This document shows positions 5,301 through 23,920 of a DNA stretch of 64,000 nt, piece after piece. The notes under the pieces were generated by a model, which saw nothing but the letters and a program-made list of their open reading frames with translations, was not told the origin of the DNA and ran no database searches. Each line of letters starts with the position of its first letter. Positions within the stretch are counted from its first letter, which is position 1. The translations under genes were made by a program, and so were the position numbers. Source of the stretch: Candidatus Fermentithermobacillaceae bacterium DTU015 (lineage in GTDB: Bacteria; Bacillota; Sulfobacillia; Fermentithermobacillales; Fermentithermobacillaceae); NCBI GenBank assembly GCA_001513185.1, contig LFST01000046.1:171739-235738 (forward strand). Direction: 5' to 3'.

Positions 5301-7088
5301 TCAAGCCCGCCTAAACTGTGCCTGGTACAGGTTGGCGTACCGGCCGCCTAAGGCAACCAGTTCATCGTGGGTGCCTGATTCCGTAATCTGCCCGTCTTCG
5401 ATCACCATGATCCGGTCTGCCGACCGCACAGTAGACAGCCTATGGGCGATGATGAACGAAGTCCTGCCTTTAAGCAGCGTCTTGAGTGCCTGTTGTATGA
5501 GCTGTTCTGTTTCCGGGTCCACGCTTGAAGTAGCTTCGTCGAGGATGAGGATCCTCGGGTCAGCTAGGATCGCCCTGGCAAACGCAAGCAGTTGCCGCTG
5601 CCCTGCCGACAGGTTTGTGCCCCGCTCTGTGACTTCGGAATCATACCCTTTAGGCAGGCTTTCAATGAAATCGTGGATACATGCAGCTTTTGCTGCCCTG
5701 ACCACTTCGTCCATAGTGGCATCAGGTTTTCCGAAAAGCAGGTTGTCTTTTATTGTCCCCGAGAAAATCAGCGTGTCTTGGAGTACAATGCCCAGCTGGC
5801 TCCTGTAAGACGGCAGGCTTACTTCAGCAAGGTCATACCCGTCTACGGTGATCTTGCCCGATGAAGGCTGGTAGAACCTGGCCAGCAGGTTGATTATGGT
5901 TGTCTTGCCCGCCCCTGTGGGCCCTACCAGGGCGATGGTTTCTCCTGGGCTCACCTTGAAGCTTATTCCAGAGAGCACCTGCTCGCCGGGTTTGTATGCA
6001 AAGCTTACGTTTTCGAATACAACTTCTCCTTCCAGCCGTGGAAGTTCAATGTACCCTTCCTGCGCTGAAGACCCTGTTTCCGGCTTGAGGTCGAGCACGG
6101 TAAACACCCTTTCAGCCGAAGCCATGGCCGAAAGCACTTGGCTCCACACCCTTGAGAACGTGCTTATAGGTGCCCAGAACTTGCCCAGGTAGTTCACAAA
6201 GGCCCACACCAAGCCTATGGTCATGGTACCTTGGACTACTGCATTTGCACCATACCAGATCACGATTGCCGTGCCCATGGCGCCCACGATATCTGTAAGC
6301 GGCCAGAAGGCCTGGTCCAGCCTGATGGCGCGCATATATGCATCGAAGTATTTCTTGTTAAATTCCCTGAACTTGGCGCTGTTGTGCTTTTCATAGCCGT
6401 ATGCCTGTATCACAGATAGGCCTTGTATGGTTTCGTTAAGATGGGCGTTGATGCTGGCAACCGCCTTGCGGGTGTCTCCCCAGGCATCTTCAAGCGCCCA
6501 CCTTACCTTGGTCAGCACGAACCCAAGCAGGGGGATGGTGACAAACGACAGCAGCGCCATCTTCCAATGGAGATACAGCATAATGCCTACGATACCTACT
6601 AAGGATATAAGCTGGCTTACCAGGTTCACAATCCCTGACGCCGCCAGGTTGCCTATGTGGTTTACGTCGTTGGTGATCCTTGACACGATTTTCCCGGCAG
6701 GCCTGCGATCGAAGAATACAAACGGCAGGGATTGGATGTGGGTGAATAAGTTTTGCCGCAGGTCGTACAGCACCTGCTGGCCCAATATGTTTATGGTTCT
6801 TACCTGGGCCCGCGATGCCGCCCACTGGATGAACCTGAGGACAAGCAGCACGGCCAATGTAACCACAAGTATCCTTACGTTGCCCGGCGTTATCCCGTCA
6901 TCGATGGCTTTCCTGAACAGCAAAGGCTCTACAAGGCCTATGATTATCCCCGTAAGGGTGAGGATTGAAGCCTTTATGGCAGTTTTCCTGTAAGGCCGGG
7001 TATACCCCAGTATCCTAAGGAAATATTCCATGTTAAACGGCCGTTCTTCTGCTTCTTCAATGAGCTCATCAAGGTCGTATTCTGACAT
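5301..7088 (-). CDS. ABC exporter, fused permease/ATP-binding subunit
   Basis: 6-TM N-terminal domain plus NBD with Walker A GPTGAGKTT, signature LSAGQRQ and Walker B ILILDEATS. Confidence 0.9.
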   Translation of the reverse strand: MSEYDLDELIEEAEERPFNMEYFLRILGYTRPYRKTAIKASILTLTGIIIGLVEPLLFRKAIDDGITPGNVRILVVTLAVLLVLRFIQWAASRAQVRTINILGQQVLYDLRQNLFTHIQSLPFVFFDRRPAGKIVSRITNDVNHIGNLAASGIVNLVSQLISLVGIVGIMLYLHWKMALLSFVTIPLLGFVLTKVRWALEDAWGDTRKAVASINAHLNETIQGLSVIQAYGYEKHNSAKFREFNKKYFDAYMRAIRLDQAFWPLTDIVGAMGTAIVIWYGANAVVQGTMTIGLVWAFVNYLGKFWAPISTFSRVWSQVLSAMASAERVFTVLDLKPETGSSAQEGYIELPRLEGEVVFENVSFAYKPGEQVLSGISFKVSPGETIALVGPTGAGKTTIINLLARFYQPSSGKITVDGYDLAEVSLPSYRSQLGIVLQDTLIFSGTIKDNLLFGKPDATMDEVVRAAKAACIHDFIESLPKGYDSEVTERGTNLSAGQRQLLAFARAILADPRILILDEATSSVDPETEQLIQQALKTLLKGRTSFIIAHRLSTVRSADRIMVIEDGQITESGTHDELVALGGRYANLYQAQFRRA

Positions 7089-7133: not shown

Positions 7134-8930
7134 TCATGCATCTTGGCTTACATGGTTTGGATTTGAGGCGTTTTCCAGTTCGAGGCTTAGTGCCAACTCC
7201 ACATCCTGTTCGGCGAACTGGCTTTCAAACAGTTTCTTGTAGAATCCAGGTTGGGACAAAAGCTCCAGATGGGTGCCTACTTGCGAGATCTTCCCGTCTT
7301 TTAAGATCACAATCTTGTCTGCATCCCTAATGGTAGACAGCCGTTTGGCGATGATGATGGTGGTCCGGTTTTCCATCACGTGGCTGAGCCCTTCCTGGAT
7401 CAAGTATTCAGTTTCCGTGTCTACGCTGGATGTGGCTTCATCGAGTATTAAGATTTTCGGGTCAGTCAAGATAGCCCTGGCAAGCGCAACCCGCTGCTTC
7501 TGTCCGCCTGAAAGCCCGATGCCCCGTTCACCCAGAGGGGTGTCATAGCCTTTGGGGAACTCAGATATAAATCCGTGGGCCTGAGCCAGCTCTGCCGCCT
7601 GGATGATCTCCTCCAGGGAAGCGTCAGGCTTTCCCAATGAGATGTTTTCCCTGACGGTGGCAGAGAACAGGAAATTTTCCTGGAGCACAAGCCCGATGTT
7701 CTTCCGCAAGGATTTCAGCGATATTTCCCTTAAGTCATGGCCGTCAAGGGTGATCCGGCCTGAAGTTGGATCCAGAAAGCGCGGGATGAGGTTAACCAAG
7801 GTTGACTTGCCCGAACCTGTCCCGCCTACGATGGCCACCGTCTCCCCGGGTAATATTTCAAGGTTTATGTTTTCCAGAGTCTTGCGGTCATCCCCTGGGA
7901 AGCAGAAGTCCACGTTTTCAAATACTATGTGCCCCTTTACTTGTTCCAGTTCCACAGGGTCCGGGCAATCCTTGATCTCAGGCTCAGTGTCCAAGAGTTC
8001 AAACAACCGGGGCGCTGCAGCCAAGGATTGTTCCGCCATGTTTACAAGCCAGCCCAGCATTCTAACCGGCCATATAAGGCTCCACAGCAGGGAATAGAAC
8101 GCAAACAACGTGCCTACCGTCATCTGTCCTGACAGTACAAGGTATCCGCCGTAACCTATCATACTTACTGCCGAAAGGCCGGTGAGCAGTTCGAGGAAAG
8201 GCTGGGCCCTGGCTTCTATGTCCGCCCGCTCCAGGTTGGCCTCGTAATGCTCTAGGTTTCTTCGGGCAAACTTCCTGATCTCCTCAGGTTCCCTGGCAAA
8301 CGCCTTTACCACCCTGATCCCAGTGATATTTTCCTGGAGGGTTTCGGTTAGCTTGCCCATCTTCTCCCTTACGTTTTTCCATGCCGGCCTCACGTTCCGG
8401 TCGAACCAGAACACAGTGCGGAACAGGAACGGAAAGGTCACTACCGTAGCGAGCATAAGCCGCCAGTTGAGGTAGGCCAGGTATGAGCTCACCCCGACTG
8501 TCATGAGCACCATGCTCACCAGGAACAGGGCGCCCCAGCCAATGAAATCCTGAACTGAGTGAATGTCGCTGGTGAGCCTTGCCATGACCTGCCCCGTGCC
8601 CATGGTTGAGAAATACGACGGGGGCAGGGTTTGGAGGTGATCGTGGATCTGTTGCCTCATTTGAAAGATCACTTCTTGCCCGATGAGTTCCGATGTGTAC
8701 CATTGGATGTATAGTACGATTCCTTTGAGCACCGCCACACCCACAAAGCCCAGGCATAGCTTCGCCAGCAGCGGCAGATCCTTTTGGGGCAAAGCTACGT
8801 CCACTATCTGCCTGAGCAACATGGCAGGAGACATCTCCAGCACTGTGGCAGCTGTCATGGCTAAGATCACAATTACTACGCCTATCCAGTGTGGTTTTAG
8901 GTACCCGAGAAGCCTTTTTAGATCTGACAT
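7134..8930 (-). CDS. ABC exporter, fused permease/ATP-binding subunit (heterodimer partner)
   Basis: TMD plus NBD with GGTGSGKST, LSGGQKQR and ILILDEATSSVD. Adjacent to and co-oriented with 5301..7088. Confidence 0.9.
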   Translation of the reverse strand: MSDLKRLLGYLKPHWIGVVIVILAMTAATVLEMSPAMLLRQIVDVALPQKDLPLLAKLCLGFVGVAVLKGIVLYIQWYTSELIGQEVIFQMRQQIHDHLQTLPPSYFSTMGTGQVMARLTSDIHSVQDFIGWGALFLVSMVLMTVGVSSYLAYLNWRLMLATVVTFPFLFRTVFWFDRNVRPAWKNVREKMGKLTETLQENITGIRVVKAFAREPEEIRKFARRNLEHYEANLERADIEARAQPFLELLTGLSAVSMIGYGGYLVLSGQMTVGTLFAFYSLLWSLIWPVRMLGWLVNMAEQSLAAAPRLFELLDTEPEIKDCPDPVELEQVKGHIVFENVDFCFPGDDRKTLENINLEILPGETVAIVGGTGSGKSTLVNLIPRFLDPTSGRITLDGHDLREISLKSLRKNIGLVLQENFLFSATVRENISLGKPDASLEEIIQAAELAQAHGFISEFPKGYDTPLGERGIGLSGGQKQRVALARAILTDPKILILDEATSSVDTETEYLIQEGLSHVMENRTTIIIAKRLSTIRDADKIVILKDGKISQVGTHLELLSQPGFYKKLFESQFAEQDVELALSLELENASNPNHVSQDA

Positions 8931-9280: not shown

Positions 9281-11878
9281 TTAACCCTGGCCTTCTACTT
9301 CTGCCAAGAGCTTCTGCAGGGACTCTTTGGCATCGCCTAGGAGAAGCACCACATGGGGCATCTCGTAGAGCGGGTTGTCTACTCCTGAATAGCCGGGCTT
9401 GGTGTCTAGGTTGCACACGATCACTTTCTTGGCTTTGTCTACATCGAGTATGGGCATGCCATAGATGGGTGTGTCTTCTGCGGTGTTGGCGGCAGGGTTG
9501 ACCACGTCGCAGGCACCCACTACTATGGCAACGTCGGTTTCAGGGAATTCAGGATTGATGTCGTCCATTTCGCAAAGCTTGTCATATGGGACGTCAACTT
9601 CAGCCAAGAGCACGTTCATATGGCCAGGCATCCTTCCGGCCACTGGGTGGATGGCGAACTTGACTTCCACCCCTCTGGCCTCGAGGGCATCCATGAGCCG
9701 TTTTACGTGCTGCTGCGCCTGGGCGATTGCCATGCCGTAGCCAGGCACGATGATGACCTTCTTGGCTTTGGCTAACGCTTCTCCCAATGACTCTTTGCTT
9801 TCCGGCTGAGGCTGTGTGGTTGCAACGTCTTCCTCAGCGTCTGCTTTAGGCAGTGTTCCTTCTGAAGCATAGCCTTCAACCGCTTCCAAGAGCTTGCTCA
9901 AGGACTCTTTGGCATCACCCAAGAGAAGCACCACGTGGGGCATTTCGTAAAGCGGGTTGTCTACCCCTGAATAGCCAGGTTTGGTGTCCAAGTTGCACAC
10001 GATCACCTGCTTGGCCTTGTCAACGTCAAGCACAGGCATGCCGTAGATGGGAGTATCCTCTGCGGTGTTTGCCGCAGGGTTGACCACGTCGCAGGCACCC
10101 ACCACTATAGCCACGTCGGTGTCGGGGAACTCAGGGTTAATGTCGTCCATCTCGCATAGCTTGTCGTAGGGTACGTCCACTTCGGCAAGGAGCACGTTCA
10201 TGTGTCCGGGCATCCTGCCGGCTACAGGGTGGATGGCGAACTTAACTTCCACGCCTCTGGCTTCCAAGGTGTCCATGAGCCGCTTTACGTGCTGCTGTGC
10301 CTGGGCGATCGCCATGCCATAACCGGGTACGATGATCACCTTCTTGGCGGTGGCCAATGCCTTGCCCAAAGCCTGTTTGCTGTCTGGTTGAGGCTGTTCG
10401 GGTGTATCGGCTTCTTGTGTCATGGCCGGTGCTTCTTGTTGTGCAGCTTGGCCTTCAATCGCTTGCAACAGTTTAGTCAAGGACTCTTTGGCATCACCCA
10501 AGAGAAGCACCACGTGGGGCATTTCGTAAAGCGGGTTGTCTACCCCTGAATAGCCAGGTTTGGTATCCAGGTTGCACACGATGACGTTTTTCGCCTTATC
10601 TACATCAAGCACGGGCATGCCGTAGATGGGAGTATCCTCTGCGGTGTTTGCCGCAGGGTTAACCACGTCGCAAGCTCCTACTACTATGACAACATCGGTT
10701 TCCGGGAATTCAGGGTTGATGTCGTCCATCTCGCACAGCTTGTCGTAGGGCACGTCCACTTCGGCAAGGAGTACGTTCATGTGTCCGGGCATCCTGCCGG
10801 CTACAGGGTGGATGGCGAACTTGACCTCAGTGCCTTTGGCCTCGAGGGCATCCATGAGCCGCTTTACGTGCTGTTGCGCCTGGGCGATTGCCATGCCGTA
10901 GCCGGGCACGATGATAACCCGTTTGGCTTCCCTCAGCATACGTCCGGCAGGGAAAGGATCCTCTGCTTGTTCTTCGGGTGCCTGAAGTGCTTCAGCCGCC
11001 GGTACGGGTGCAGCTGGTTCTGCAGGGGCTTCCGGTGCTTCGTCCTGAGTCTTAGGTTTGGATGATGGTTTAGCGATGGCGCCGCTGAGCACGTGGGCGA
11101 GCGACCTGTTCATTGCCCTGCACATTATCTGGGTGAGGATAAGCCCTGATGCCCCGACGATCGCTCCTACCGCGATGAGCAGCGGGTCTGAAATGGTGAA
11201 ACCTACGATAGACCCCGCCAACCCTGAGAAAGAGTTGAGGAGCGAGATGGTGATGGGCATGTCAGCCCCACCCACCCTTATGGCGAACAGCACGCCGTAG
11301 ATGTTGGACAGGATGAGCACGAGCACTGACAAGGGCACCACTGCTGTATCGAAGAACAGGGTGGCAATCCCCAAGCCGAACATGGCTACGATACTCAGGT
11401 TGGCCCAGAAATTATGGTTTGGAAGGTGTACAGGCATCTGGGTCATGCGCCTGTCCAGCTTTGCCGCAGCTATCATACTGCCACTGAACGTCACGCCCCC
11501 GACGATGAGCCCCAGCTGGCCGCTGAGCTTGTTGAACGTAGCCATCTGATGGTATTTATCCATGACTTCCATCATGGATACCAGGGCCGAGGCTGCGCCG
11601 CCGAACCCGTTGAGCAAGGCTACCATCTGTGGCATCTGAATCATCTTGACCCTCAGGCCAAGGGTCAGGCCAAAGGCTGCACCAACTGCCATTGCCGCCC
11701 ACAGCAAAGGCACAGTCAGTATGCCATTGTTCCAAAGGGTCAACAGTATGGCGGTAAACATGGCCAGGGCGCTTAGTCGGTTGCCATTCACAGCGGTCCG
11801 GGGAGAGCTCATCATCTTAATGCCAAGGAGGACCAACCCTGAAAGCACGATCGAAACTACAACATATAAGCGATCCAT
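9281..11878 (-). CDS. pntB: NAD(P) transhydrogenase beta subunit (PntB) with three tandem dIII domains
   Basis: N-terminal ~270 aa multi-TM dII domain, P/A/E-rich linker, then three complete dIII NADP(H)-binding domains. Each begins KRVIIVPGYGMAIAQAQQHV and ends VVLLLGDAKESL. Confidence 0.85.
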   Translation of the reverse strand: MDRLYVVVSIVLSGLVLLGIKMMSSPRTAVNGNRLSALAMFTAILLTLWNNGILTVPLLWAAMAVGAAFGLTLGLRVKMIQMPQMVALLNGFGGAASALVSMMEVMDKYHQMATFNKLSGQLGLIVGGVTFSGSMIAAAKLDRRMTQMPVHLPNHNFWANLSIVAMFGLGIATLFFDTAVVPLSVLVLILSNIYGVLFAIRVGGADMPITISLLNSFSGLAGSIVGFTISDPLLIAVGAIVGASGLILTQIMCRAMNRSLAHVLSGAIAKPSSKPKTQDEAPEAPAEPAAPVPAAEALQAPEEQAEDPFPAGRMLREAKRVIIVPGYGMAIAQAQQHVKRLMDALEAKGTEVKFAIHPVAGRMPGHMNVLLAEVDVPYDKLCEMDDINPEFPETDVVIVVGACDVVNPAANTAEDTPIYGMPVLDVDKAKNVIVCNLDTKPGYSGVDNPLYEMPHVVLLLGDAKESLTKLLQAIEGQAAQQEAPAMTQEADTPEQPQPDSKQALGKALATAKKVIIVPGYGMAIAQAQQHVKRLMDTLEARGVEVKFAIHPVAGRMPGHMNVLLAEVDVPYDKLCEMDDINPEFPDTDVAIVVGACDVVNPAANTAEDTPIYGMPVLDVDKAKQVIVCNLDTKPGYSGVDNPLYEMPHVVLLLGDAKESLSKLLEAVEGYASEGTLPKADAEEDVATTQPQPESKESLGEALAKAKKVIIVPGYGMAIAQAQQHVKRLMDALEARGVEVKFAIHPVAGRMPGHMNVLLAEVDVPYDKLCEMDDINPEFPETDVAIVVGACDVVNPAANTAEDTPIYGMPILDVDKAKKVIVCNLDTKPGYSGVDNPLYEMPHVVLLLGDAKESLQKLLAEVEGQG
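9284..10921 (-). repeat. three tandem ~579-bp in-frame coding repeats (dIII domain plus linker) inside pntB
   Basis: Units at approx 10343-10921, 9764-10342 and 9284-9763. The two proximal copies share >80-nt identical runs. The distal (C-terminal) copy is ~85-90% identical to them. Confidence 0.85.
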
Positions 11879-11895: not shown

Positions 11896-12183
11896 CTATT
11901 CTTGTTTCTTGAACATCTTAAGCATCCGGTCTGTAACCACAAACCCGCCTACTAGGTTGATGGTAGCCAAGGCTATGGCTACAAACCCAATAGCCATGCT
12001 CTTATAAGTCAAGGCGAATGCAGTGGCAACCAGGGAACCCAGTATGGTCACGCCAGAGATGGCGTTGGAACCCGACATGAGAGGTGTGTGAAGCAAAGAA
12101 GGCACTTCACTTATCACCTTGTACCCAAGCCAGGTTGCAACTGCAAAAACCACGACCTGAATCAGTAGATCCATGAATGCCAC
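11896..12183 (-). CDS. pntAB: NAD(P) transhydrogenase alpha subunit part 2 (PntAB, membrane)
   Basis: 95 aa, 3-4 TM helices, placed between pntAA and pntB as in split-alpha pnt operons. Confidence 0.8.
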   Translation of the reverse strand: MAFMDLLIQVVVFAVATWLGYKVISEVPSLLHTPLMSGSNAISGVTILGSLVATAFALTYKSMAIGFVAIALATINLVGGFVVTDRMLKMFKKQE

Positions 12184-12193
12184 TCCTTATAGA

Positions 12194-13375
12194 TTAGTCC
12201 AGTCCCATTGCTTCCCTTGCTCCGGCGTGAACCAGTTCGCCGTCTTTGCACACAAGTGAGGATGCAGTGATCTCGTCATCAAGGTCGATTACGACTTTGC
12301 CGTCTTTGACCAGGTGTGAAGCGTAGTTCAGCACGTTCCGTGCAAACATCGTGGTTGAGCTTTCGGGAACCATTCCGGGGATGTTCTTGGTTCCGTCGAT
12401 GCTAACTCCGTATTTTTCGATTACTTCGCCGCCAACGGTAAGTTCGCAGTTCCCGCCTTGGTCAATGGCAACGTCTACGATGGCGGAACCGGGCTTCATT
12501 GCTTTGACCATCTCTTCGGTAATGAGGACCGGTGCCAGCCGTCCAGGCACAAGGGCGGTAGCTACCACAACGTCGGACTTAATGATGGTGTCCTTGATAG
12601 CTTCACGTTCTTTGATCAGCCATTCTTCCGGAAGGGCCTTGGCGTAACCACCTTCACCTATTGCGATCTCAGCCGGGACCCCTGTTTCAACCGGCTTTGC
12701 TCCCAAGCTCTTGGCATGCTCCACTGCGTCGGGCCTGATATCTATCGCGTTAACCACGGCGCCAAGCCTCTTTGCAGTTGCCACTGCCTGGAGTCCTGCA
12801 ACTCCGGTTCCGATTACTGTTACGGTGGCAGGGGGGATCATACCTACTGCAGAGCCAATCATGGGCATGAACTTAGGCAGCCTGTTGGCAGCCATGAGTA
12901 CGGCCTTGTAACCGGCTACTGTGCTCATGGAAGTCAAAGCGTCCATGGCCTGGGCCCTCGAAATCCTGGGAATGCCGTCAAGGGTAAGCGCGGTAACGCC
13001 TTTTGCAGTCAGCTGCTTGACCATCTCATGGTTTGCCGGTGCAGCAGGGTGCAAGAAGGTAATAAGCACCTGGCCTTCATGCATCATATCAACTTCATGC
13101 TTGTTCTTTTCGGAATTGAAAAGCGGTTCTTTTACTTTGAGGATGATGTCAGCTTCTGCGAAAAGTTTTTCGACATCGTCAACGATTTCTGCGCCGGCCT
13201 TGACATATTCTTCATCGGGGAAGAATGAACCTACGCCTGCTCCCTTTTCGACCAGCACTTTGGCGCCGCCGGCTGTAAGTTTTTTCACTGTTTCAGGAAT
13301 ACCTGCTACGCGTCTTTCACCAGGCATGATCTCTTTGGGAATTCCGAAGACAAGACCTTGAAATTGCATGTGCAA
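12194..13375 (-). CDS. pntAA: NAD(P) transhydrogenase alpha subunit part 1 (dI, alanine dehydrogenase-like)
   Basis: Rossmann motif VIGTGVAGLQA and AlaDH/PNT family blocks. Confidence 0.9.
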   Translation of the reverse strand: MHMQFQGLVFGIPKEIMPGERRVAGIPETVKKLTAGGAKVLVEKGAGVGSFFPDEEYVKAGAEIVDDVEKLFAEADIILKVKEPLFNSEKNKHEVDMMHEGQVLITFLHPAAPANHEMVKQLTAKGVTALTLDGIPRISRAQAMDALTSMSTVAGYKAVLMAANRLPKFMPMIGSAVGMIPPATVTVIGTGVAGLQAVATAKRLGAVVNAIDIRPDAVEHAKSLGAKPVETGVPAEIAIGEGGYAKALPEEWLIKEREAIKDTIIKSDVVVATALVPGRLAPVLITEEMVKAMKPGSAIVDVAIDQGGNCELTVGGEVIEKYGVSIDGTKNIPGMVPESSTTMFARNVLNYASHLVKDGKVVIDLDDEITASSLVCKDGELVHAGAREAMGLD

Positions 13376-13589: not shown

Positions 13590-15155
13590 GTGTCAAACAA
13601 GGGTTTCGCCAGGGCGACAGTCATCGTTTCCGTCCTGAGCGTGCTTTCTAAAATAATGGGTTTTGTACGGGAACAGCTGGTAGCTTGGCTGTTTGGGGCA
13701 TCGGGGCTCACCGATGCCTATGTGGTAGCGCTTGCCATACCTACTGTGCTTACCGGAGTGATTTCCAATCCTGTGTCGACGGCTTTTTTGCCTGTATTTG
13801 CATCGTATGTAGCGCGGGATGACACAAAGGGTGCGACCAGGCTGGCGTCATCGGTGATTACATTGTCTGTAGGCGCCTTCCTGTTGGCAGGCCTGGCAGC
13901 TATCCCCTTTGCGCCGGCCCTGGTCAGATTGTATGCACCTGGGTTTTCAGGGCATGTGTTTGACAGTGCGGTGGGGCTTACCAGGCTGTTTTTTCCCGCT
14001 TTTGCGCTGCCCCTCTTGGGCGCTCTGTACAAGGGAATACTTAACACCTACAAGGAGTTTACGGTACCCGGCATAGCTCCCTTCGTTCAAAATCTGTGTA
14101 TAGTCGGTTTGACGGCTCTGTTGGCTCCGGCGCTGGGTGTACGTGGCCTGGCCATCGCTACGGTAGCGGGCTATCTGGCGTTTAACTTGATTCAGGTACC
14201 ATGGGTGCGCCGGCTGCGGTTGGGACTCAGCTTCATGCCGGAGGTAAGCCCTGGCACAAAGCAAGTTGCAAACCTCGCGCTTCCCCTCATGGTAGGCGGG
14301 CTGGCTACCCAGCTCTACACCCTTGTGGACAAGAACCTTGCGTCGAGGCTTGCCCAGGGTTCGATAGCCGCGCTAAATTTCGCCGGCAGGATAAGGTATT
14401 TGCCCATCGATCTGTTTGTCACCGCGGTGATCACTGTGGTATTCCCTGCCTTGTCTGAGATGTGGGCGCGGAAGGATGAGCAAGCCATGGGAGAGACCCT
14501 CATTACCGGTGCCCGTTTTGCCTTGTTTGTGTGCGTGCCTTCTGCAGTCGGGCTGGCGGTGCTGGCTAAGCCGGTTGTCAGGATTGCGTTTGAAAGAGGG
14601 GCATTTACCGGCACGGCCACCTTGCTTACCGCAGGCGCCTTGTCAGTTTACTCCCTCGGGATCGTAGGGCTGGCCCTTTGCAGGATCGTCGACGTAGGTT
14701 TTTACTCCAGCCAGAACACCTGGTATCCGGTATTGCTGGCTTTAGGGGTTTCGTGTGTGAATATTGTATATGATCTTGTGCTGGTTGGCCCTTTGGGCCA
14801 TATCGGCCTGGCACTTGCCAATGTGCTGGCGTCGTGGCTAGGCGCGGCAGCCGGCCTTATCTTGTACACCAAGCATATCGCCGGGGTTAACTTCAGACCA
14901 CTCATCGGATCGGGCTTGAAGATATTGCTTTCATCCGCGGTAATGGGCATATGCGCGTGGGCCCTCGGAACGTATTCCGGCGTGATTGCCGGCACGGGCA
15001 GCCTGACGCAGGACATCATATTGACGTTTATTGCCGTAGGGGTTTCAGTGTTGGTATATCTGGCGTGTGCCTTTATCCTTAAGTGTGAGGAGCTTGTGCT
15101 CATAACAAATATCGTAAGGCGCAGGTTGGGCAATTCAGGAAAGGAGAGCTCTTGA
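13590..15155 (+). CDS. murJ: lipid II flippase MurJ
   Basis: N-terminus VLSKIMGFVREQLVAWLFGASGLTDAYVVALAIP is typical of MurJ/MviN. 14 TM segments. Confidence 0.9.
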   Translation: MSNKGFARATVIVSVLSVLSKIMGFVREQLVAWLFGASGLTDAYVVALAIPTVLTGVISNPVSTAFLPVFASYVARDDTKGATRLASSVITLSVGAFLLAGLAAIPFAPALVRLYAPGFSGHVFDSAVGLTRLFFPAFALPLLGALYKGILNTYKEFTVPGIAPFVQNLCIVGLTALLAPALGVRGLAIATVAGYLAFNLIQVPWVRRLRLGLSFMPEVSPGTKQVANLALPLMVGGLATQLYTLVDKNLASRLAQGSIAALNFAGRIRYLPIDLFVTAVITVVFPALSEMWARKDEQAMGETLITGARFALFVCVPSAVGLAVLAKPVVRIAFERGAFTGTATLLTAGALSVYSLGIVGLALCRIVDVGFYSSQNTWYPVLLALGVSCVNIVYDLVLVGPLGHIGLALANVLASWLGAAAGLILYTKHIAGVNFRPLIGSGLKILLSSAVMGICAWALGTYSGVIAGTGSLTQDIILTFIAVGVSVLVYLACAFILKCEELVLITNIVRRRLGNSGKESS

Positions 15156-17293
15156 TGAGACCTGTAAGCTCAGAAGACTTGTACCTCATGAAGTGGGTGA
15201 GAGATCCCCAGATATCTCCTGACGGTACAAAGGTTTTGTTTGAAGTTAAGACAGTTGAACACGAAGGTACGTTGAAATCATATAAGACCCAAATATACAT
15301 GGCCTGTCTGGATAAACCTCAAACCGGCCCCATAAGGTTTACGTCGGGCATGGGCAACGACACCTCGCCTAGGTGGTCCCCTTGCGGGACAAAGGTGGCT
15401 TTTCTGTCTGACAGGGACAAGGACAAGAACCAGCTATATATCCTGTCCCTTGAGGGAGGCGAAGCAACCAAGGTTACATCTGTAGAGGGCGGGGTACGGA
15501 ACCCCAGCTGGTCCCCCGACGGAAAGAGAATCGCGTTCTGTGCCCTTGACCGGCAGGCGCAGCAGGACGAACCTAACTCAGGCAATAGCTCAGGGGTGAG
15601 GGTGGTTACCCGGCTGAGGCACAAGCTGGATTCCGTGGGCTTCCTTCCAGAAAGCAGTTACCAGATATATGTATTGGATGTAGAGTCGGGGGAAATCACC
15701 CAGCTTACTACGGGCCCCTATGACTGTCTTGAGCCTGAATGGTCTCCTGACGGCGAGCACATAGCTTTTGTATCCGCCAGGTTCCCGGACTACGAGCTTT
15801 CCTATGTGAAAGATATCTGGGTGGTGCCGTCACAGGGCGGGGAGATGAAGCGGCTTACTTCAAGCGACGCGGTACTGTCTTCGCCTTCATGGTCTCCCGA
15901 TGGCAGGGCCATCGCTTGCTATGGCCACGACAACGGGTACAAAGGCGCTACCGTCCCAGGGATATGCCTGGTGGACCCGGAGGATGGCACTGTCAGGTTC
16001 CTTACAAGGCCGGCCCATCTTGGAGCAGGCCAGACTGCCACGTCAGACATGGTGTCTCCTACCCGTTCCAAGCCGGCTTGGTCTGCTGACGGCAAGAAGA
16101 TATATTTCAGTGCCTTGCACCGGGGGGCAACCGGCCTCTACAGTGTGGATGTGGATACCATGGCCGTGGATCACATCGTTGATGGAAAGTGTGTGATCTA
16201 CGGTTGGAGCAAAGCTGCATCCAGGGACAGGTTTGCTGCGGCGGTCACTTCGCCTGAGATAATCTGCGACATCTGGTGCGTTGATTTAAGCGTTGAGGCT
16301 CCCAAGCTGGAAGACACGGTGTTAGAAGTCACCGGCGGTAGGGGGCAAGTGAGGCGGATAACCCAGGTAAACAGGGAACTCCTTGAGTCCCTGTATCTAA
16401 GCCGCCCTGAGGAAGTAGAGGTAGAAGCGTACGACGGGCAGAAACTTCAGGCGTGGGTGATGAAACCCATAGGGATGCAAGATGAAGGCAAGTATCCGCT
16501 GGTGGTGCACATACACGGCGGGCCCCATTCGGCCTACGGTTACGCCTTTTTCCATGAGTTCCAGCTATTAGCCTCCCGGGGATACGGCGTGATTTTCGGT
16601 AACCCTAGGGGCAGCACCGGCTATGGGCAAGAATTCGTGGCGGCTACACGGCATGATTGGGGAGGCACCGACTACCAAGACGTAATGGCCATTGCAGATT
16701 TTGCAGCCAAGCTCCCCTGGGTCGACAACCAGAGGATGGGTGTTACCGGGGGAAGCTACGGAGGCTACATGACCAATTGGATAATCGGGCATACCAACCG
16801 GTTCAAGGCTGCGGTTTCCTGCAGGAGCACCTGCAACCGTTTCAGCCAGTTCGGCACAAGTGATGCTGCGTACATGAACGGGCAGTTTGAATTCGACGGC
16901 GACCCGTGGGATAACCCTGAGGCCTATTTGTCCAGATCTCCCATCATGTATGTGAGGAATGTTGAGACTCCCCTGCTCCTTATCCACAGCGAAGGGGATT
17001 TGAGGTGCCCCATAAGCCAGGCTGATGAGATGTTCGTCGCGCTTAAGAAACTTAGGAAGCCCGTTGTGATGGTCAGGTTCCCGGGAGAGAGCCACAACCT
17101 ATCCCGGACGGGCAAACCGCTCCACAGGGTCGAACGGCTGGAGTACATGGTGGCTTGGTTTGACAGATACATGGGCCCGGAAGAGAAGGATTATTCAGTT
17201 CCCCTTGCCAAGCCGGCAAACGTAGCTCTTAAACTGCCTAAACAGCCGGCGCTGGAAGAAGGTGAACCCGGCAGTGAAGCAGAGGTCCGGTAG
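15155..17293 (+). CDS. S9 family peptidase (prolyl oligopeptidase/acylaminoacyl-peptidase-like)
   Basis: N-terminal WD40-like beta-propeller repeats (WSPDG x4). C-terminal alpha/beta hydrolase with nucleophile elbow GGSYGGYM. Confidence 0.85.
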   Translation: MRPVSSEDLYLMKWVRDPQISPDGTKVLFEVKTVEHEGTLKSYKTQIYMACLDKPQTGPIRFTSGMGNDTSPRWSPCGTKVAFLSDRDKDKNQLYILSLEGGEATKVTSVEGGVRNPSWSPDGKRIAFCALDRQAQQDEPNSGNSSGVRVVTRLRHKLDSVGFLPESSYQIYVLDVESGEITQLTTGPYDCLEPEWSPDGEHIAFVSARFPDYELSYVKDIWVVPSQGGEMKRLTSSDAVLSSPSWSPDGRAIACYGHDNGYKGATVPGICLVDPEDGTVRFLTRPAHLGAGQTATSDMVSPTRSKPAWSADGKKIYFSALHRGATGLYSVDVDTMAVDHIVDGKCVIYGWSKAASRDRFAAAVTSPEIICDIWCVDLSVEAPKLEDTVLEVTGGRGQVRRITQVNRELLESLYLSRPEEVEVEAYDGQKLQAWVMKPIGMQDEGKYPLVVHIHGGPHSAYGYAFFHEFQLLASRGYGVIFGNPRGSTGYGQEFVAATRHDWGGTDYQDVMAIADFAAKLPWVDNQRMGVTGGSYGGYMTNWIIGHTNRFKAAVSCRSTCNRFSQFGTSDAAYMNGQFEFDGDPWDNPEAYLSRSPIMYVRNVETPLLLIHSEGDLRCPISQADEMFVALKKLRKPVVMVRFPGESHNLSRTGKPLHRVERLEYMVAWFDRYMGPEEKDYSVPLAKPANVALKLPKQPALEEGEPGSEAEVR

Positions 17294-17966
17294 GCGATAC
17301 ACATCCAAGGAAATATGGGGCTATCATGAAGACACAGCCAGCGAACTAAAGCTTGCAAGGGCGCTTAAGAAGGCAGGGGTTTGCTTTGAAAGGGAAGTCC
17401 CGATAAACCGGTTTATCGTAGATTTCCTGGTGGACGGCTGGCTTGTTGTGGAGGTGGACGGATGGAGCCACCTCACCGCCTCCCGCCAGCTGGAGGACAC
17501 AAAGCGCCAATCTGAGCTGGAATCGTGGGGGTTTTCGGTGATACGTATCCCTGCCATGGAAATTTCCCACCGAGCGGGCCTAAAACAGTGGGTCAACAAA
17601 ATCGTAAAACTGTCCAAGCAGGGCCCGCCAGGCCTGAACCAAACCGGTTTTGAAAATATCCACCTTAAGCAAGCAGTTGAACGTGTCCGGCGGGAGCTTG
17701 TGGAACAGGCGAGGAAAACAGGGCAAAAGGTTCAAGAGCAAAAACGTGAGGCCAGCCGCGTTTGGGCTGATGGACGTACCGTGGGTTCACGGAACCGGAC
17801 GCACACAGAGGAAAGCATGCACGACTACTTCGGCCCTGAGGCTGAGGATTTCGGGAAACTATTAGAGCAGTATGACTGGAGCAAAGCTCCTGTCAAACAC
17901 GAAGATGAGCCTGAAGAGAGGCAAAATGCCCGCGGGCGTCGTACACATAGGCGTAGACATAAGTAA
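17262..17966 (+). CDS. DUF559 endonuclease-domain protein with basic C-terminal tail
   Basis: Vsr/DUF559-like REVPINRFIVDFLVDGWLVVEVDGWSH. Start uncertain (ATG 17262 or GTG 17274). Confidence 0.6.
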   Translation: MNPAVKQRSGRRYTSKEIWGYHEDTASELKLARALKKAGVCFEREVPINRFIVDFLVDGWLVVEVDGWSHLTASRQLEDTKRQSELESWGFSVIRIPAMEISHRAGLKQWVNKIVKLSKQGPPGLNQTGFENIHLKQAVERVRRELVEQARKTGQKVQEQKREASRVWADGRTVGSRNRTHTEESMHDYFGPEAEDFGKLLEQYDWSKAPVKHEDEPEERQNARGRRTHRRRHK

Positions 17967-18400: not shown

Positions 18401-21082
18401 ATGAAACAGGATATATTTGCTAGATCGCTTACCACAAACATAACAGGATATTATGCCAGATGGGAGCAGCCTGCAGCCATCGACCCGGAACAAGCAAAAG
18501 CGCTATCGCGGATGCTGGATGTGCCTGCCGAAACCGCCTCAGTGCTCTTGAGGCGGGCCGGAGGATGTATCCAAACTGCCCTGGAGCTTTGGGAAGCTAA
18601 AGCACCCTTGCCGGATTTTAGGGCCCTCCCAGGGATTGAGCAAGCGGTTCACAGGCTTATGCAGGCTGCCGGCTCCGGGGAAAAGGTGCTGGTGTATTCG
18701 GATTTTGACGCCGACGGCGTGGCAGCCGGGGTGATCCTCAAGGAAGGGCTTGGACTTGCGGGGATACATAATGTAGATGTTTTCTTCCCGTGCAGGTTCA
18801 AGCATGGCTACGGGTTCCATGCAGACTTGATAGACACCTTCCATTCCCAAGGAGTAAGCCTCATAATCACCGCAGACTGCGGGATTACCGGCTGGGATGC
18901 ATGCAGGAAGGCACGGTCCCTGGGTATCGATGTGATCATCACCGATCACCACAGGCTCGGCCCGTGCTTGCCTGAGGCTTTTTCAATCCTAAACCCCCAA
19001 TTGCCCTCGTGGGAGGAGTTTGGGCTCAAGTTTCTCACAGGCGCCGGAGTTGCGTATTTGCTCATAAGGGCGCTCTTGGAAGCCGGGGGCCTGGGGGATG
19101 AGATGCCCCCTGATTGGGGCACCGACATGCTCGCCCTGTCCATCGGAGGAGACGGCCATCCTGTGACCGGGCTCAACCGCCTGTGGATAAAGCAGGGCAT
19201 GCAGGTGTTGCAATACACGTGCCGTCCCGGTATCTTTGCCCTGCTGTGTGTTTCGGGGATCTTTAAGTTAGGACAGGGTTTTGGCCTTGACGAGTGTATG
19301 GCCACTCTATTGCCGGAAAACGGCCTGGACGAGCCTTTTACCCTTGACGGTCTGGAAGCGGGCGCGCTTGAGGGCGCGGTTGAAATAAGGGATCTTGAGT
19401 TTGAGCGGGATGTTGTGTTTGCCTTGGTGCCCAGGATCAATGCAGCCGCAAGGCTCAGCCACGCCAAGGACGCATTTGACCTGCTGTGCGAGGAGGATTT
19501 GCCTAGAGCGTTCCAGATGGCAAAGCAACTTGACCGGCTCAACCGGGAAAGGCGCAGGATCGAGCTGGCCATGCTCCAGGAATGTTACGAAAGGCTGGAC
19601 CGGCAGGCTGCGACCAGCGTAGCGGGAGGGGAGTCCGGTGAATCCCAGGCACCCCAGGCGGCCGGGGCAGTTTACCTGGGATACCCCCGGTATTCCATCT
19701 GTGAAGCGGGGCACTCATGGCACCAGGGAGTGGTGGGCATCGCGGCGTCAAAGGTGAGGGACAGGTACTGGCGGCCATGTGCCTTGATTGCAGGAGAAGG
19801 CCCTGTGCTTAAGGGGTCGGTACGCGGAATACCCGGGCTTAACATACACCGGGTGTTGTCAGAGTGCAAGGACCTGTTGATCAATTACGGCGGACATAAG
19901 GCTGCGGGAGGATTTTCAGTCGCGAGTGAAAACATCCCTGCATTTGCAGACAAGTTTGAAGCTGTAGTGCAGGAACTCTTAGAAGACAAATTGATTGAAC
20001 CGGCGCTGCAGCTGGACGCACTCTTAAATCCCGGGGATTGCCGGGATGATGCGCTGATGACTCTGGTATCCCTGGAGCCTTTTGGTACTGGCAATCCCCG
20101 GCCTGCCTTGGGGCTTTTGGGAGGCAGGATAACCGGGGCAAGACTGCTGGGCAAGGACCAAGATCATCTCGAACTCACCGTAGGTGACGCTCAACACCAG
20201 GTGAGGCTGGTGTGGTTCGGCGGAGGGCATAAAGCGGTTCAGGTATGCCTCGCAGGAGCTTGCGACCTGGTATTTACCCCCAACCGCAACACATACCTTG
20301 GCAGGGATACGGTGTCTTTGTTTGTTGAGGATTTCCGGCTTGCTTGGAGCATGTTGGGCCAAAAATATACCGGGCTGGCCGGGTATATCCCAGACGGAAG
20401 GCCCGTGATTGTCTACACATGGAGCCCTGATGCGGCAGCTGCCATATGGGTTGGGTTGAAGCGCCTCGGGGTTGAGGCAGGTTTGCACCTGAGCAACCAT
20501 GGCGGTGCCCTGGCCCACAATGCCAAGGTTATCCTCAAGAGAGGCAGCGGGATAGTTGTGTCTACCGCTCCCTGGGATCTGATTAATGCGGATCTGGTGC
20601 GGGATGTAGCAGTGTTGGTGGTTCACCCGCCTGTTTCCACACAAGCCAGGGACAAGCTTTCAGATTTGCGAGGAGCAAATGGGATTGAGTGTGTGTGCCT
20701 GGATGGTTATGCTGATGATTCAATCACCTGGCTGCTTGCCCGCCATCCTTCAAAGGAATACATAGAGCAAGTGTGGAAGTTTCTCATTGGCAGATCTCGC
20801 AGGGGGTACATCCCTGTGTGGGAAGCCGGCCCTTTGTATGCGCAGAGGTTTGTAGAATTTGAGGGCGCCGCTTATGAGCAGCAATTGGTGCTCCTGGAAA
20901 CGTGTATTTCCATTATGATGGAACTGGGTATGATATCTTTCGATGTTGTCAACCGGATACCCATGTTTGTCTTACACAGACCCAAGGGACAAGTCAGCCT
21001 TTCAGGCTCACCCCTGTACGTGAAAGGGCGCAACCTTAGGAGGGCTGCCCGGGGGTTAATGGAACATTTGAGGGAGGGATAA
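18401..21082 (+). CDS. recJ: single-stranded-DNA-specific exonuclease RecJ (DHH/DHHA1)
   Basis: DHH motifs VYSDFDADGV and ITDHH. DHHA1 motif GGHKAAGGFSV. Conserved recJ-apt-relA context. Confidence 0.9.
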   Translation: MKQDIFARSLTTNITGYYARWEQPAAIDPEQAKALSRMLDVPAETASVLLRRAGGCIQTALELWEAKAPLPDFRALPGIEQAVHRLMQAAGSGEKVLVYSDFDADGVAAGVILKEGLGLAGIHNVDVFFPCRFKHGYGFHADLIDTFHSQGVSLIITADCGITGWDACRKARSLGIDVIITDHHRLGPCLPEAFSILNPQLPSWEEFGLKFLTGAGVAYLLIRALLEAGGLGDEMPPDWGTDMLALSIGGDGHPVTGLNRLWIKQGMQVLQYTCRPGIFALLCVSGIFKLGQGFGLDECMATLLPENGLDEPFTLDGLEAGALEGAVEIRDLEFERDVVFALVPRINAAARLSHAKDAFDLLCEEDLPRAFQMAKQLDRLNRERRRIELAMLQECYERLDRQAATSVAGGESGESQAPQAAGAVYLGYPRYSICEAGHSWHQGVVGIAASKVRDRYWRPCALIAGEGPVLKGSVRGIPGLNIHRVLSECKDLLINYGGHKAAGGFSVASENIPAFADKFEAVVQELLEDKLIEPALQLDALLNPGDCRDDALMTLVSLEPFGTGNPRPALGLLGGRITGARLLGKDQDHLELTVGDAQHQVRLVWFGGGHKAVQVCLAGACDLVFTPNRNTYLGRDTVSLFVEDFRLAWSMLGQKYTGLAGYIPDGRPVIVYTWSPDAAAAIWVGLKRLGVEAGLHLSNHGGALAHNAKVILKRGSGIVVSTAPWDLINADLVRDVAVLVVHPPVSTQARDKLSDLRGANGIECVCLDGYADDSITWLLARHPSKEYIEQVWKFLIGRSRRGYIPVWEAGPLYAQRFVEFEGAAYEQQLVLLETCISIMMELGMISFDVVNRIPMFVLHRPKGQVSLSGSPLYVKGRNLRRAARGLMEHLREG

Positions 21083-21745: not shown

Positions 21746-23920
21746 GTGGGAGCCATGGCAGTAACTAAACTGCAAGACGACATAGGTGCATACTTGCAGG
21801 ACCAGGAGAGGGAACTGGTCCAAAGGGCCTATGTTTTTGCTGCCAAGGCTCACGAGGGTCAGTATAGGCTGTCGGGCGAGGAATATATCCACCATCCCGT
21901 GGCTGTAGCCCGGATACTGTCTGAACTTGAAGGTGATGCCGACACCCTCGCAGCTGCCCTGCTCCACGATGTGGTGGAAGATACTGACGTTACCCTCGAA
22001 GAAATCCGCCAGGAATTCGGGCCTGAAATCGCCAGGCTGGTCGACGGAGTGACCAAGCTAAGCCGGATCCAGTTTCACTCCCGGGTGGAAGAGCAGGTAT
22101 CAAACTTGAGAAAGATGTTTCTGGCCATGGCGGAAGACTGGCGGGTAGTGGTAATCCGGCTTGCCGACAGGCTGCACAACCTCAGGACCCTAGGTGCGCT
22201 TCCTGTTGAGAAACAAAAGCAGACTGCCGAGGAAACCCTGGACATTTACGCCCCCCTGGCCCACAGGCTGGGGATTTGGCGGTTTAAGTGGGAACTTGAG
22301 GATTTGAGTTTCAGGTACCTCTACCCTGAAGACTACCGGTCCCTGGCAGAGCAGATCTCTGCCAAACGCAGCGAGCGCGAAGCCGAGGTAGCTATGGTGA
22401 TCAGCCGTCTGCAGGCTTCACTCCAGGAACACGGGATACAAGCGGAAGTTCAGGGGAGGGCCAAGAACCTTTACAGTATTTACAGGAAGATGAAGCGCCA
22501 GGCCATTGATATTTCTCAGATATACGACCTGTTGGCAGTGAGGGTGATCGTGGCTACCGTGAGCGATTGTTATGAAGTGTTGGGGCTGGCCCATACCCTC
22601 TGGAAACCCATGCCCGGAAGGTTCAAGGACTACATTGCCATGCCCAAGCCCAACGGCTACCAGTCACTCCACACAACTGTGCTAGGGCCTTTGGGGAAGC
22701 CTTTTGAAATACAGATACGGACCAGAGACATGGACCGGACTGCAGAATACGGCAGTGCGGCCCATTGGAAATACAAAGAGGGAAAGGCCGACCAGTCCTT
22801 TGACCAGAAGATGTCATGGTTGCGCCAGCTCCTGGATTGGCAACGGGAGATGACCGACGCCGGCGAGTTCATGGAGGCTCTCAAACTGGACCTGTTCAAT
22901 GACGAGGTGTTCGTGTTTACCCCCAAAGGCGACGTGATCGATCTGCCTGTCGGGTCTACGCCTCTGGATTTTGCTTACAGGATCCACACAGACGTAGGCC
23001 ACCAGTGCGTCGGGGCAAAAGTCAACGGCAGGCTGGTGCCTTTATCATACAAACTCAATACAGGCGACATAGTGGAGATCCTTACTTCACGCCAGTCATC
23101 GGGGCCCAGCCGGGACTGGCTGGACATTGTGAAGACATCCACGGCGCGCTCGAAGATCCGGGCGTACTTCAGGAAACTGCTCAGAGAAGAAGACATCGCC
23201 CGGGGTAAGGCTGCCCTTGAGAACGAAGTCCAACAGAAACTGGGCGTGAAGTTAGCGGACCTGATTGAGGCAGGCGTAGCCTCCAACGTGCTCAAGAAGC
23301 TCAACTATCATGACTTCCAGAGCCTGTACGCGGCTATCTCCTACGGGGGAATCAGCGCCGTCCACGTAACCACCAGGCTGCGGGAAGAGGCTCTCAAGGC
23401 CGCACCTGACCTTTTGCCTAAGCGGGAAGAGACGCCAAAGGCCGCCCCTAAGAAGCCCAGGGGGCCGGAAGAGGCGGTTATTGTCAAAGGGATGGACGGG
23501 ATCCTGGTGCGGCTGGCACAGTGCTGCTCGCCTTTGCCCGGAGACCAGATAATCGGGTATATCACCAGAGGCCGGGGTGTCACCATCCATAGGCTGGATT
23601 GTCCCACTTTGTTGTCGCTTACCGATACTGAGCGGTTTATCGAAGCGACGTGGAAGGCTGAGGTAAGGGCGTCTTACCCTGTGGAAATACTGGTGGAAGG
23701 CGAGGACAGGCCGGGGCTGTTTGCTGAGGTCACCTCTGTAATAGCCAGCATGGGTTCAAACATAACCAACGCTACCGCTAGGGGGTGTCCTGACGGGACG
23801 GCCAGGATCACCATCCAGTTTGAAACCCATGACCTTAACGAACTCAGGAAAGTGGTAGCCGGTATCAGGCAAGTAGAAGGGATTGCAGCAGTAAAGCGTG
23901 TTTTCGGTAAGGGGAGATAA
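21746..23920 (+). CDS. relA: bifunctional (p)ppGpp synthetase/hydrolase RelA/SpoT
   Basis: N-terminal HD hydrolase domain (HDVVEDT), synthetase domain, TGS and ACT domains. The ATG at 21755 after SD AAGGTGGGA is the likelier start. Confidence 0.9.
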   Translation: MGAMAVTKLQDDIGAYLQDQERELVQRAYVFAAKAHEGQYRLSGEEYIHHPVAVARILSELEGDADTLAAALLHDVVEDTDVTLEEIRQEFGPEIARLVDGVTKLSRIQFHSRVEEQVSNLRKMFLAMAEDWRVVVIRLADRLHNLRTLGALPVEKQKQTAEETLDIYAPLAHRLGIWRFKWELEDLSFRYLYPEDYRSLAEQISAKRSEREAEVAMVISRLQASLQEHGIQAEVQGRAKNLYSIYRKMKRQAIDISQIYDLLAVRVIVATVSDCYEVLGLAHTLWKPMPGRFKDYIAMPKPNGYQSLHTTVLGPLGKPFEIQIRTRDMDRTAEYGSAAHWKYKEGKADQSFDQKMSWLRQLLDWQREMTDAGEFMEALKLDLFNDEVFVFTPKGDVIDLPVGSTPLDFAYRIHTDVGHQCVGAKVNGRLVPLSYKLNTGDIVEILTSRQSSGPSRDWLDIVKTSTARSKIRAYFRKLLREEDIARGKAALENEVQQKLGVKLADLIEAGVASNVLKKLNYHDFQSLYAAISYGGISAVHVTTRLREEALKAAPDLLPKREETPKAAPKKPRGPEEAVIVKGMDGILVRLAQCCSPLPGDQIIGYITRGRGVTIHRLDCPTLLSLTDTERFIEATWKAEVRASYPVEILVEGEDRPGLFAEVTSVIASMGSNITNATARGCPDGTARITIQFETHDLNELRKVVAGIRQVEGIAAVKRVFGKGR

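Follow-up and report, generated by a model that had tools for sequence, protein, structure and literature searches.

The 64,000-nt stretch of Candidatus Fermentithermobacillaceae bacterium DTU015 analyzed here (contig LFST01000046.1, positions 171,739 to 235,738 of the forward strand; referred to as the window) carries a pntAA-pntAB-pntB operon of the proton-translocating transhydrogenase type. Its last gene, pntB, codes for a membrane domain (dII) followed by three complete copies of the NADP(H)-type domain (dIII). The gene is a single, uninterrupted open reading frame (ORF) of 865 aa on the minus strand, at 9281..11878. A preliminary description had already read this ORF as a membrane domain followed by three complete dIII, and this was borne out; the interval it had given for the feature, 9281-10921, reaches only from the stop codon to the start of dIII-1, and the strand was corrected to minus. 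Both pntAA and pntAB lie directly upstream on the same strand, and pntB is the last gene of a three-gene operon of the type with a soluble NAD(H)-binding domain (dI). The operon and the parts of pntB are listed below, with E-values for the matches.

12194..13375, minus strand: pntAA, soluble NAD(H)-binding dI, 393 aa from a TTG start (391 aa in the calls of other assemblies); Pfam AlaDh_PNT_N 7.2e-48 and AlaDh_PNT_C 3.9e-63
11896..12183, minus strand: pntAB, membrane subunit with four transmembrane helices (4-TM; dII part a), 95 aa; Pfam PNTB_4TM 1.6e-32 and PDB Thermus thermophilus alpha2 subunit 3.1e-20
11063..11878, minus strand: pntB dII membrane domain (aa 1-272); PDB 9l76_C (Escherichia coli PntB) 5.5e-39 and 4o9u_B 1.2e-36; AlphaFold2 helices through aa 265
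10943..11062, minus strand: linker 0 (aa 273-312, 40 aa), P/A/E-rich, sequence PSSKPKTQDEAPEAPAEPAAPVPAAEALQAPEEQAEDPFPAG; predicted local distance difference test (pLDDT) below 50 at aa 268-308; edges taken from structure alignments
10460..10942, minus strand: dIII-1 (aa 313-473), complete NADP(H)-type domain, placed by the dIII profile described below; PDB 4j16_C 7.1e-59; motifs GYGMA, HPVAGRMPGHMNVLLAE, GACDVVNPAA and GYSGVDNPLY
10364..10459, minus strand: linker 1 (aa 474-505, 32 aa); pLDDT below 50 at aa 478-502
9881..10363, minus strand: dIII-2 (aa 506-666), placed by the dIII profile; ratio of nonsynonymous to synonymous divergence (dN/dS) 0.11 against copy 1 and 0.035 against copy 3
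9782..9880, minus strand: linker 2 (aa 667-699, 33 aa); pLDDT below 50 at aa 670-695
9299..9781, minus strand: dIII-3 (aa 700-860), the C-terminal copy, placed by the dIII profile
9281..9298, minus strand: five-residue tail VEGQG and stop codon, from the ORF translation

The Pfam profile PF02233 (PNTB) matched the 865-aa protein in three stretches with 1115.7 bits, and its best stretch, at aa 8-472, covered profile positions 4-455 of 456. The NCBIfam PntB equivalog NF006974 gave 752 bits at a cut-off of 689. Using a hidden Markov model built from the repeats (dIII HMM), complete dIII domains were placed at aa 313-473, 506-666 and 700-860, and the domain search that had been proposed as a check therefore returned three dIII matches. 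Solved dIII structures were matched by every copy, with T. thermophilus 4j16_C (7.1e-59) as one example. Weak Pfam matches (TPP_enzyme_M and others) were below cut-off, with no stretch passing alone, and were disregarded. The three linkers were acidic, rich in P, A, E and Q and mutually unrelated in sequence. A linker of this kind precedes each dIII, as had been described, at lengths of 40, 32 and 33 aa rather than ~40 aa throughout. Self-comparison of the DNA, also proposed beforehand, showed identity maxima at shifts of 579, 582 and 1161 nt, with 89%, 85.6% and 85.8% identity in the respective best segments of 450 nt, compared to ~36% at other in-frame offsets. A repeat search found three copies spaced by 582 and 579 nt, in agreement with the three tandem, in-frame units of ~579 bp reported earlier. 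Tandem Repeats Finder gave no rows for the window because its longest period, 500, is shorter than the unit of 579-582 nt. The AlphaFold2 model, for which 15 three-copy orthologues served as input, had a mean pLDDT of 69.8 and a predicted template modelling score (pTM) of 0.39, and all three linkers stayed below a pLDDT of 50. The low pTM and the predicted disorder of the linkers therefore suggest that the domains have no fixed packing against each other; as modelled, the architecture would resemble folded beads on disordered strings.

The two membrane-proximal copies, which had been described as near-identical over long runs, share one identical tract of 88 nt (10477-10564 and 9898-9985), and their cores overall were 86.3% identical at the nucleotide and 91.9% at the amino acid level. 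For copies 1 and 3 these values were 82.6% and 91.9%, and for copies 2 and 3 they were 84.1% and 94.4%. Synonymous divergence (dS) between the copies was 0.56-1.09 and dN/dS was 0.035-0.11 (Nei-Gojobori); judged by their synonymous sites the copies are old, and strong purifying selection acts on each of them. The C-terminal copy is diverged, as had been noticed, and at synonymous sites all three copies are well diverged, not the last alone. At least 23 contigs encoded an identical 865-aa protein; they stem from independent metagenomes of anaerobic digesters (ENA, JGI), were assembled by MEGAHIT and SPAdes and reached 1.86 Mb in the longest case. The surroundings of the gene were constant on those contigs: MurJ, pntAA, pntAB, pntB and then two ATP-binding cassette (ABC) exporters. 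On account of the divergence of the copies and the recovery of the identical protein on these independent contigs an assembly artefact was excluded, which upholds the earlier view that the array is no assembler duplication. The catalytic columns showed the same invariant set in each of the three copies of the 15 three-copy orthologues and held across 475 dIII copies of 121 proteins. Conservation between orthologues was equal by position (0.919 for the first, 0.922 for the middle and 0.923 for the last copy). That the three-dIII gene is real and that selection acts on all of its copies can hardly be doubted.

The preliminary description had raised the question of whether such an architecture recurs in orthologues, and multi-dIII proteins with two to five copies were found; the architecture is widespread rather than singular and is tied to a subfamily with an altered motif for the 2'-phosphate of NADP(H). 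The 120 best full-length homologues were all multi-dIII proteins of 804-1234 aa, with three dIII in 16, four in 98 and five in 7. Their sources included Bacillota metagenome-assembled genomes (MAGs), several Desulfovibrio species, Porphyromonas uenonis, P. gingivicanis, Dysgonomonas massiliensis, Bacteroidales and the complete 3.7-Mb isolate genome of Alkalicella caledoniensis, in which PntB has four copies. In that genome (CP058559.1; L001, 5001-8033), nucleotide identity among the four dIII units was 92-99%, and two linkers were the same. Species genomes of the GTDB with two to four dIII belonged to Bacillota, Ruminococcaceae, Candidatus Riflebacteria, Bacteroidaceae, Anaerolineaceae, Desulfobacula and Desulfobacteraceae. 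When a single-dIII query was searched against 1.84 billion representatives at 50% identity, 809 proteins were matched at E<=1e-30, and ~21 of the best 150 of these 809 had at least two dIII stretches. Multi-dIII proteins are a small but real fraction of the PntB family. Across the multi-dIII family the linkers had a median length of 21 aa, were rich in A, S, E, P and T and carried a net negative charge; their sequences were without conservation between lineages. The order pntAA-pntAB-pntB was kept in Alkalicella, Desulfovibrio sp. and P. uenonis, and an operon with soluble dI was found at 16/16 multi-dIII GTDB loci where it was visible. A link between multi-dIII and a split, soluble dI was considered and rejected, as pntAA and pntAB were split at 81/81 loci with visible alpha-subunit genes, whether single or multi and whether of the N-x-D type (see below) or the KR type. 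The source annotations of the multi-dIII homologues read plainly 'subunit beta', and NCBIfam holds the generic PntB equivalog only, with no dedicated multi-dIII model. Full-text literature searches, which cover few subscription journals, found no description of a multi-dIII or KRS-less PntB.

In E. coli dIII the KRS motif holds the 2'-phosphate, the group by which NADP differs from NAD. All three window copies have N-L-D at these positions (aa 435-438, 628-631 and 822-825), where T. thermophilus has KRG and Rhodospirillum rubrum has KRS. The E. coli KRS residues, K424-R425-S426, open loop E and belong to the NADP(H) site (PMC9529548), and Arg425 contacts NADP+ (PMC13635403). Among the 475 copies of the 121 multi-dIII homologues the first residue was N in 475/475, followed by Y, F or L, and then by D in 468/475. 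The dinucleotide-binding motifs themselves (GYGMA, HPVAGRMPGHMNVLLAE, the loop D Asp392 equivalent and the loop E Gly-Tyr) were retained in all three window copies and were invariant in 475/475 homologue copies. N-x-D was also present in ~110 single-dIII PntB proteins that are the closest by dII, with Tepidanaerobacter, Proteiniborus, Dethiobacteria and Defluviitoga among the sources, and in many N-x-D members GANDV was replaced by GACDV as well. In the GTDB sample, 17/17 multi-dIII loci were of the N-x-D type and 54/54 KR-type loci were single. Among the library representatives, KR-type exceptions were limited to a fragment and a protein whose second dIII is degenerate. P0254, a rare KRS-type PntB of 664 aa from the representative library, has a clearly degenerate second dIII (GYGAGRAQAQ, HPLAGHMPGH, KRGLGAGVAG), unlike the well-kept N-x-D arrays. 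The comparison of the N-x-D and KR groups revealed no compensating basic residue in dIII. A specificity swap was sought in the dI of the N-x-D type and none was found, the NAD(H) site being unchanged; pntAA of the window retains GxGxxG and the invariant Asp212. Judged by these motifs, dIII multiplication is almost confined to a PntB subfamily, mainly of anaerobes and with one to five dIII, in which the 2'-phosphate pocket appears remodelled.

The closest known layout is that of the three-subunit PntAA/PntAB/PntB enzymes of T. thermophilus and R. rubrum (PDB 4O9U, 4J16, 1PNO and 1HZZ), which have the same gene order and a soluble dI. The window operon matched this type with 3.1e-20 in the 4-TM subunit, 1.2e-36 in dII and 7.1e-59 in dIII. 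GYGMA, HPVAGRMPGHMNVLLAE, the loop D Asp and the loop E GY(A/S)G are common to this type and to each window copy, whereas in the window protein the beta subunit carries three dIII rather than a single one, and loop E begins with N-L-D where these enzymes have K-R-(S/G). Compared to E. coli PntAB (PDB 9L76 and related), dII (5.5e-39) and dIII (2.8e-51) are homologous and the reaction chemistry is presumably the same. The E. coli enzyme has a fused alpha subunit (dI and four TM helices), one dIII, KRS and His91, whereas the window operon has a split dI, three dIII, N-L-D and Asn. Linker 0 is about twice as long as the tether between dII and dIII of E. coli or T. thermophilus. The single-dIII N-x-D proteins of Tepidanaerobacter acetatoxydans, Proteiniborus ethanoligenes and Defluviitoga tunisiensis were up to 79-80% identical to the window protein in dII and share with it the C/Y/F-N-x-D loop E motif and GACDV, while having one dIII where the window protein has three. 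We know of no single-dIII N-x-D PntB enzyme that has been characterized. By its sequence, the window protein is a divergent member of the PntB family and not a separate family, since the dII and dIII homology, the dinucleotide-binding motifs and the operon partners are present while one dIII per subunit and KRS are absent. The tandem lipoyl domains (1-3) of the E2 subunits of 2-oxoacid dehydrogenase complexes and the tandem acyl carrier proteins (ACPs) of polyunsaturated fatty acid and polyketide synthases offer a functional analogy only. As in those systems, small repeated domains are joined by flexible linkers of Ala, Pro and charged residues, the copy number varies between species and the copies within a protein are near-identical. 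Unlike them, dIII shows no homology to these domains (Pfam), and its nucleotide is dissociable, with no covalent prosthetic arm; dIII binds NADP(H) non-covalently.

The two known proton-channel His positions, betaHis91 in TM9 of E. coli and alpha2-His42 in TM3 of T. thermophilus, were also compared. The window has no His at either position: Asn is found at the TM9 position (pntB 'ALLNGFGG', about 11600-11640) and Ser at the TM3 position (pntAB 11896-12183, 'SNAISG'), whereas T. thermophilus has the TM3 His. Absence of the channel His was considered as a marker of the subfamily and rejected, as the Asn/Ser combination also occurs in many PntAB of the KRS type, that of Microcystis among them.

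Within one protein the dIII copies were 75-99% identical (median 89%), and this within-protein identity was ~0.89 at every dII distance. For proteins with a dII identity of 0.85-0.95, dIII copies at the same position were more alike than those at other positions (0.911 vs 0.868); below ~75% dII identity the positional signal was gone (0.777 vs 0.772 and 0.734 vs 0.732). Positional orthology among close relatives only, combined with a steady within-protein identity, therefore points to concerted evolution or continual turnover. The last copy was the most diverged within a protein across the family (0.868 vs 0.90-0.915), which is what one expects of the outermost unit in a tandem array. A neighbor-joining tree of 226 dII sequences required at least 8 switches between single and multi-dIII and at least 17 copy-number changes, compared to ~76 when labels were shuffled. 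P0001 and P0026, with five and four dIII, were 100% identical in dII, which reflects either a unit gained or lost very recently or a difference between the assemblies. The nearest dII relative of the three-copy protein P0019 was a single-dIII protein at 87% identity. Two-copy variants of 671-672 aa (P0398, P0400 and P0402, on contigs of 150-290 kb) fell into the 90% cluster of the window protein itself. The junctions of P0400 and P0402 resemble a fusion of copy 1 and copy 2, and that of P0398 resembles the junction of copy 2 and copy 3; these variants are either real unequal-crossover alleles or collapsed short-read assemblies. Compared to four other assemblies (L084, L085, L087 and L088), the window differed by 4 synonymous changes within 52 nt of dIII-1 (gene nt 1335, 1350, 1371 and 1386). 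At all 4 sites dIII-1 of the window carries the base of dIII-2, a pattern found in the window strain only, and it is these bases that account for the 88-nt identical tract. The tract is the product of either gene conversion or a local assembler switch.

Canonical dIII is mobile: face-down on dII it exchanges its nucleotide coupled to H+, and face-up on the dI dimer it takes part in hydride transfer, as established by structures of the enzymes from T. thermophilus, sheep and E. coli. Face-down states of the E. coli enzyme have been described (PMC13635403). The explanation that we favor, at a probability of roughly 0.6, is that the operon encodes a functional proton-translocating transhydrogenase with multiplied mobile dIII, the array being kept up dynamically by unequal recombination and gene conversion. 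Its parts differ in strength. The operon probably encodes a working enzyme, in which hydride transfer between NADH and NADP+ would be coupled to H+ translocation; we also infer, as had been suggested earlier, that three dIII would change the stoichiometry of the transhydrogenase. What the extra copies contribute is more tentative, and the proposal that follows, drawn by analogy, stands at somewhat less than even odds. The tandem dIII on their long tethers would serve as a set of mobile carriers, much as tandem lipoyl or ACP domains do, with several loaded carriers queuing for the two docking sites on dI and dII. One dIII could exchange its nucleotide on dII while another is engaged in hydride transfer on dI, and additional soluble dI dimers could possibly be recruited by the extra dIII. 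In this way dI and dII would be idle less often and the flux per membrane unit would be higher. In a digester Limnochordia population a pntB/AA1/AA2 cluster was reported to be stably expressed, and reverse, gradient-generating operation was proposed (PMC11844248). That study suggests a plausible candidate setting for the physiology of such an enzyme.

Several points weigh against multiplied carriers as the explanation. An isolated canonical dIII holds NADP(H) occluded and product release at dII is rate-limiting, which makes extra carriers no obvious relief. Single- and multi-dIII proteins coexist among close relatives, at 87% dII identity, and the extra copies would therefore be dispensable. 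Some of the copy-number differences between MAGs may be assembly collapse and not biology, and the missing KRS motif of the window protein and its relatives leaves NADP(H) only putative as the bound nucleotide. The same array could instead reflect a division of labor, in which only the membrane-proximal dIII is coupled to dII and the distal copies serve as NADP(H) reservoirs or buffers, or as scaffolds for soluble dI dimers. The soluble, separate dI of every multi-dIII operon examined would suit this, as would the very tight NADP(H) binding of isolated dIII, its formation of dI2:dIII complexes and the systematically greater divergence of the last copy. We consider it unlikely, if still worth attention, since between orthologues the constraint is the same on first, middle and last copies, the invariant motifs in them are identical, concerted evolution keeps the copies interchangeable and greater divergence would be expected of the edge unit of any tandem array. 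Rather doubtful, too, is that the N-x-D subfamily forms a functionally distinct class of transhydrogenase, in which the loss of KRS would alter the nucleotide affinity or specificity of dIII and the tandem array would be an adaptation making a low-affinity mobile domain work. On that reading NADP(H) binding would be weaker and non-occluded, or another nucleotide would be bound, with the array helping by avidity and local concentration, and the enzyme may serve in reverse, proton-motive-force-generating operation (NADPH to NAD+) in syntrophic and fermentative anaerobes.

Near-neutral drift, whereby unequal recombination expands and shrinks the array with little functional effect and three is simply its current state, would fit the five against four copies at complete dII identity, the three against one at 87%, the two-copy variants within the same cluster and the number of copy-number changes on the dII tree. 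It is nevertheless improbable, as the dN/dS values point to selection on every copy, arrays of 3-5 copies persist in several phyla and a 92-kDa membrane protein has a synthesis cost; moreover, expansion is nearly limited to one subfamily, with the KR type nearly always single, which argues for a benefit specific to that subfamily. The long, predicted disordered linkers and a Met codon in linker 1 would allow for a polyprotein or for internal initiation, with soluble dIII freed in excess over dII by linker cleavage or internal starts. This we regard as very improbable: neither a conserved cleavage motif nor an internal start kept across the family was seen, the linkers lack sequence conservation from one lineage to another, and a scan of the pnt region for promoters and terminators gave no signal above shuffled expectation. 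An expansion of one 579-bp unit by the assembler is effectively refuted. Repeats of ~580 bp do exceed short reads, and the cluster that holds the two-copy variants also holds partial proteins ending inside the repeat; against this, the copies differ at 14-17% of nucleotides, mostly synonymous, the linkers are unrelated, the identical three-copy gene was obtained by MEGAHIT and SPAdes from independent datasets, including the 1.86-Mb contig, and a complete isolate genome carries four copies.

Models of transhydrogenase coupling currently assume a strict 1:1 ratio of dII to dIII, with the two dIII of the dimer in antiphase as they swivel from dI to dII and back. Natural enzymes in which 2-5 interchangeable dIII hang on long, disordered tethers offer a direct test of this 1:1 antiphase picture. 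They raise the questions of whether a distal dIII can dock on dII, whether tether length matters and whether hydride transfer or nucleotide exchange is rate-limiting, and the loss of KRS poses a further one: how NADP(H) is recognized, if it is at all, in a large group of PntAB found mainly in anaerobes. Although annotated as a matter of routine, N-x-D PntAB enzymes have, to our knowledge, received no study. Metabolic engineering uses PntAB as a standard tool for regenerating NADPH, for which the natural series of one to five dIII is a ready-made set of variants. The architecture is surprising for the mechanistic model of the field, widespread and testable in cultured organisms, with Alkalicella caledoniensis, Desulfovibrio spp., Porphyromonas spp. 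and Dysgonomonas massiliensis as cultured carriers.

No tRNA gene and no Rfam match at the gathering threshold were found in the whole 64-kb window. The genes flanking the pnt operon were ordinary, with no link to pnt seen:

5301-7088 and 7134-8930, minus strand: two ABC exporter genes with fused transmembrane and nucleotide-binding domains
13590-15155, plus strand: MurJ
15152-17293, plus strand: S9 prolyl oligopeptidase with a beta-propeller
17262-17966, plus strand: DUF559 endonuclease-like ORF
18401-21082, plus strand: RecJ
21746-23920, plus strand: RelA/SpoT

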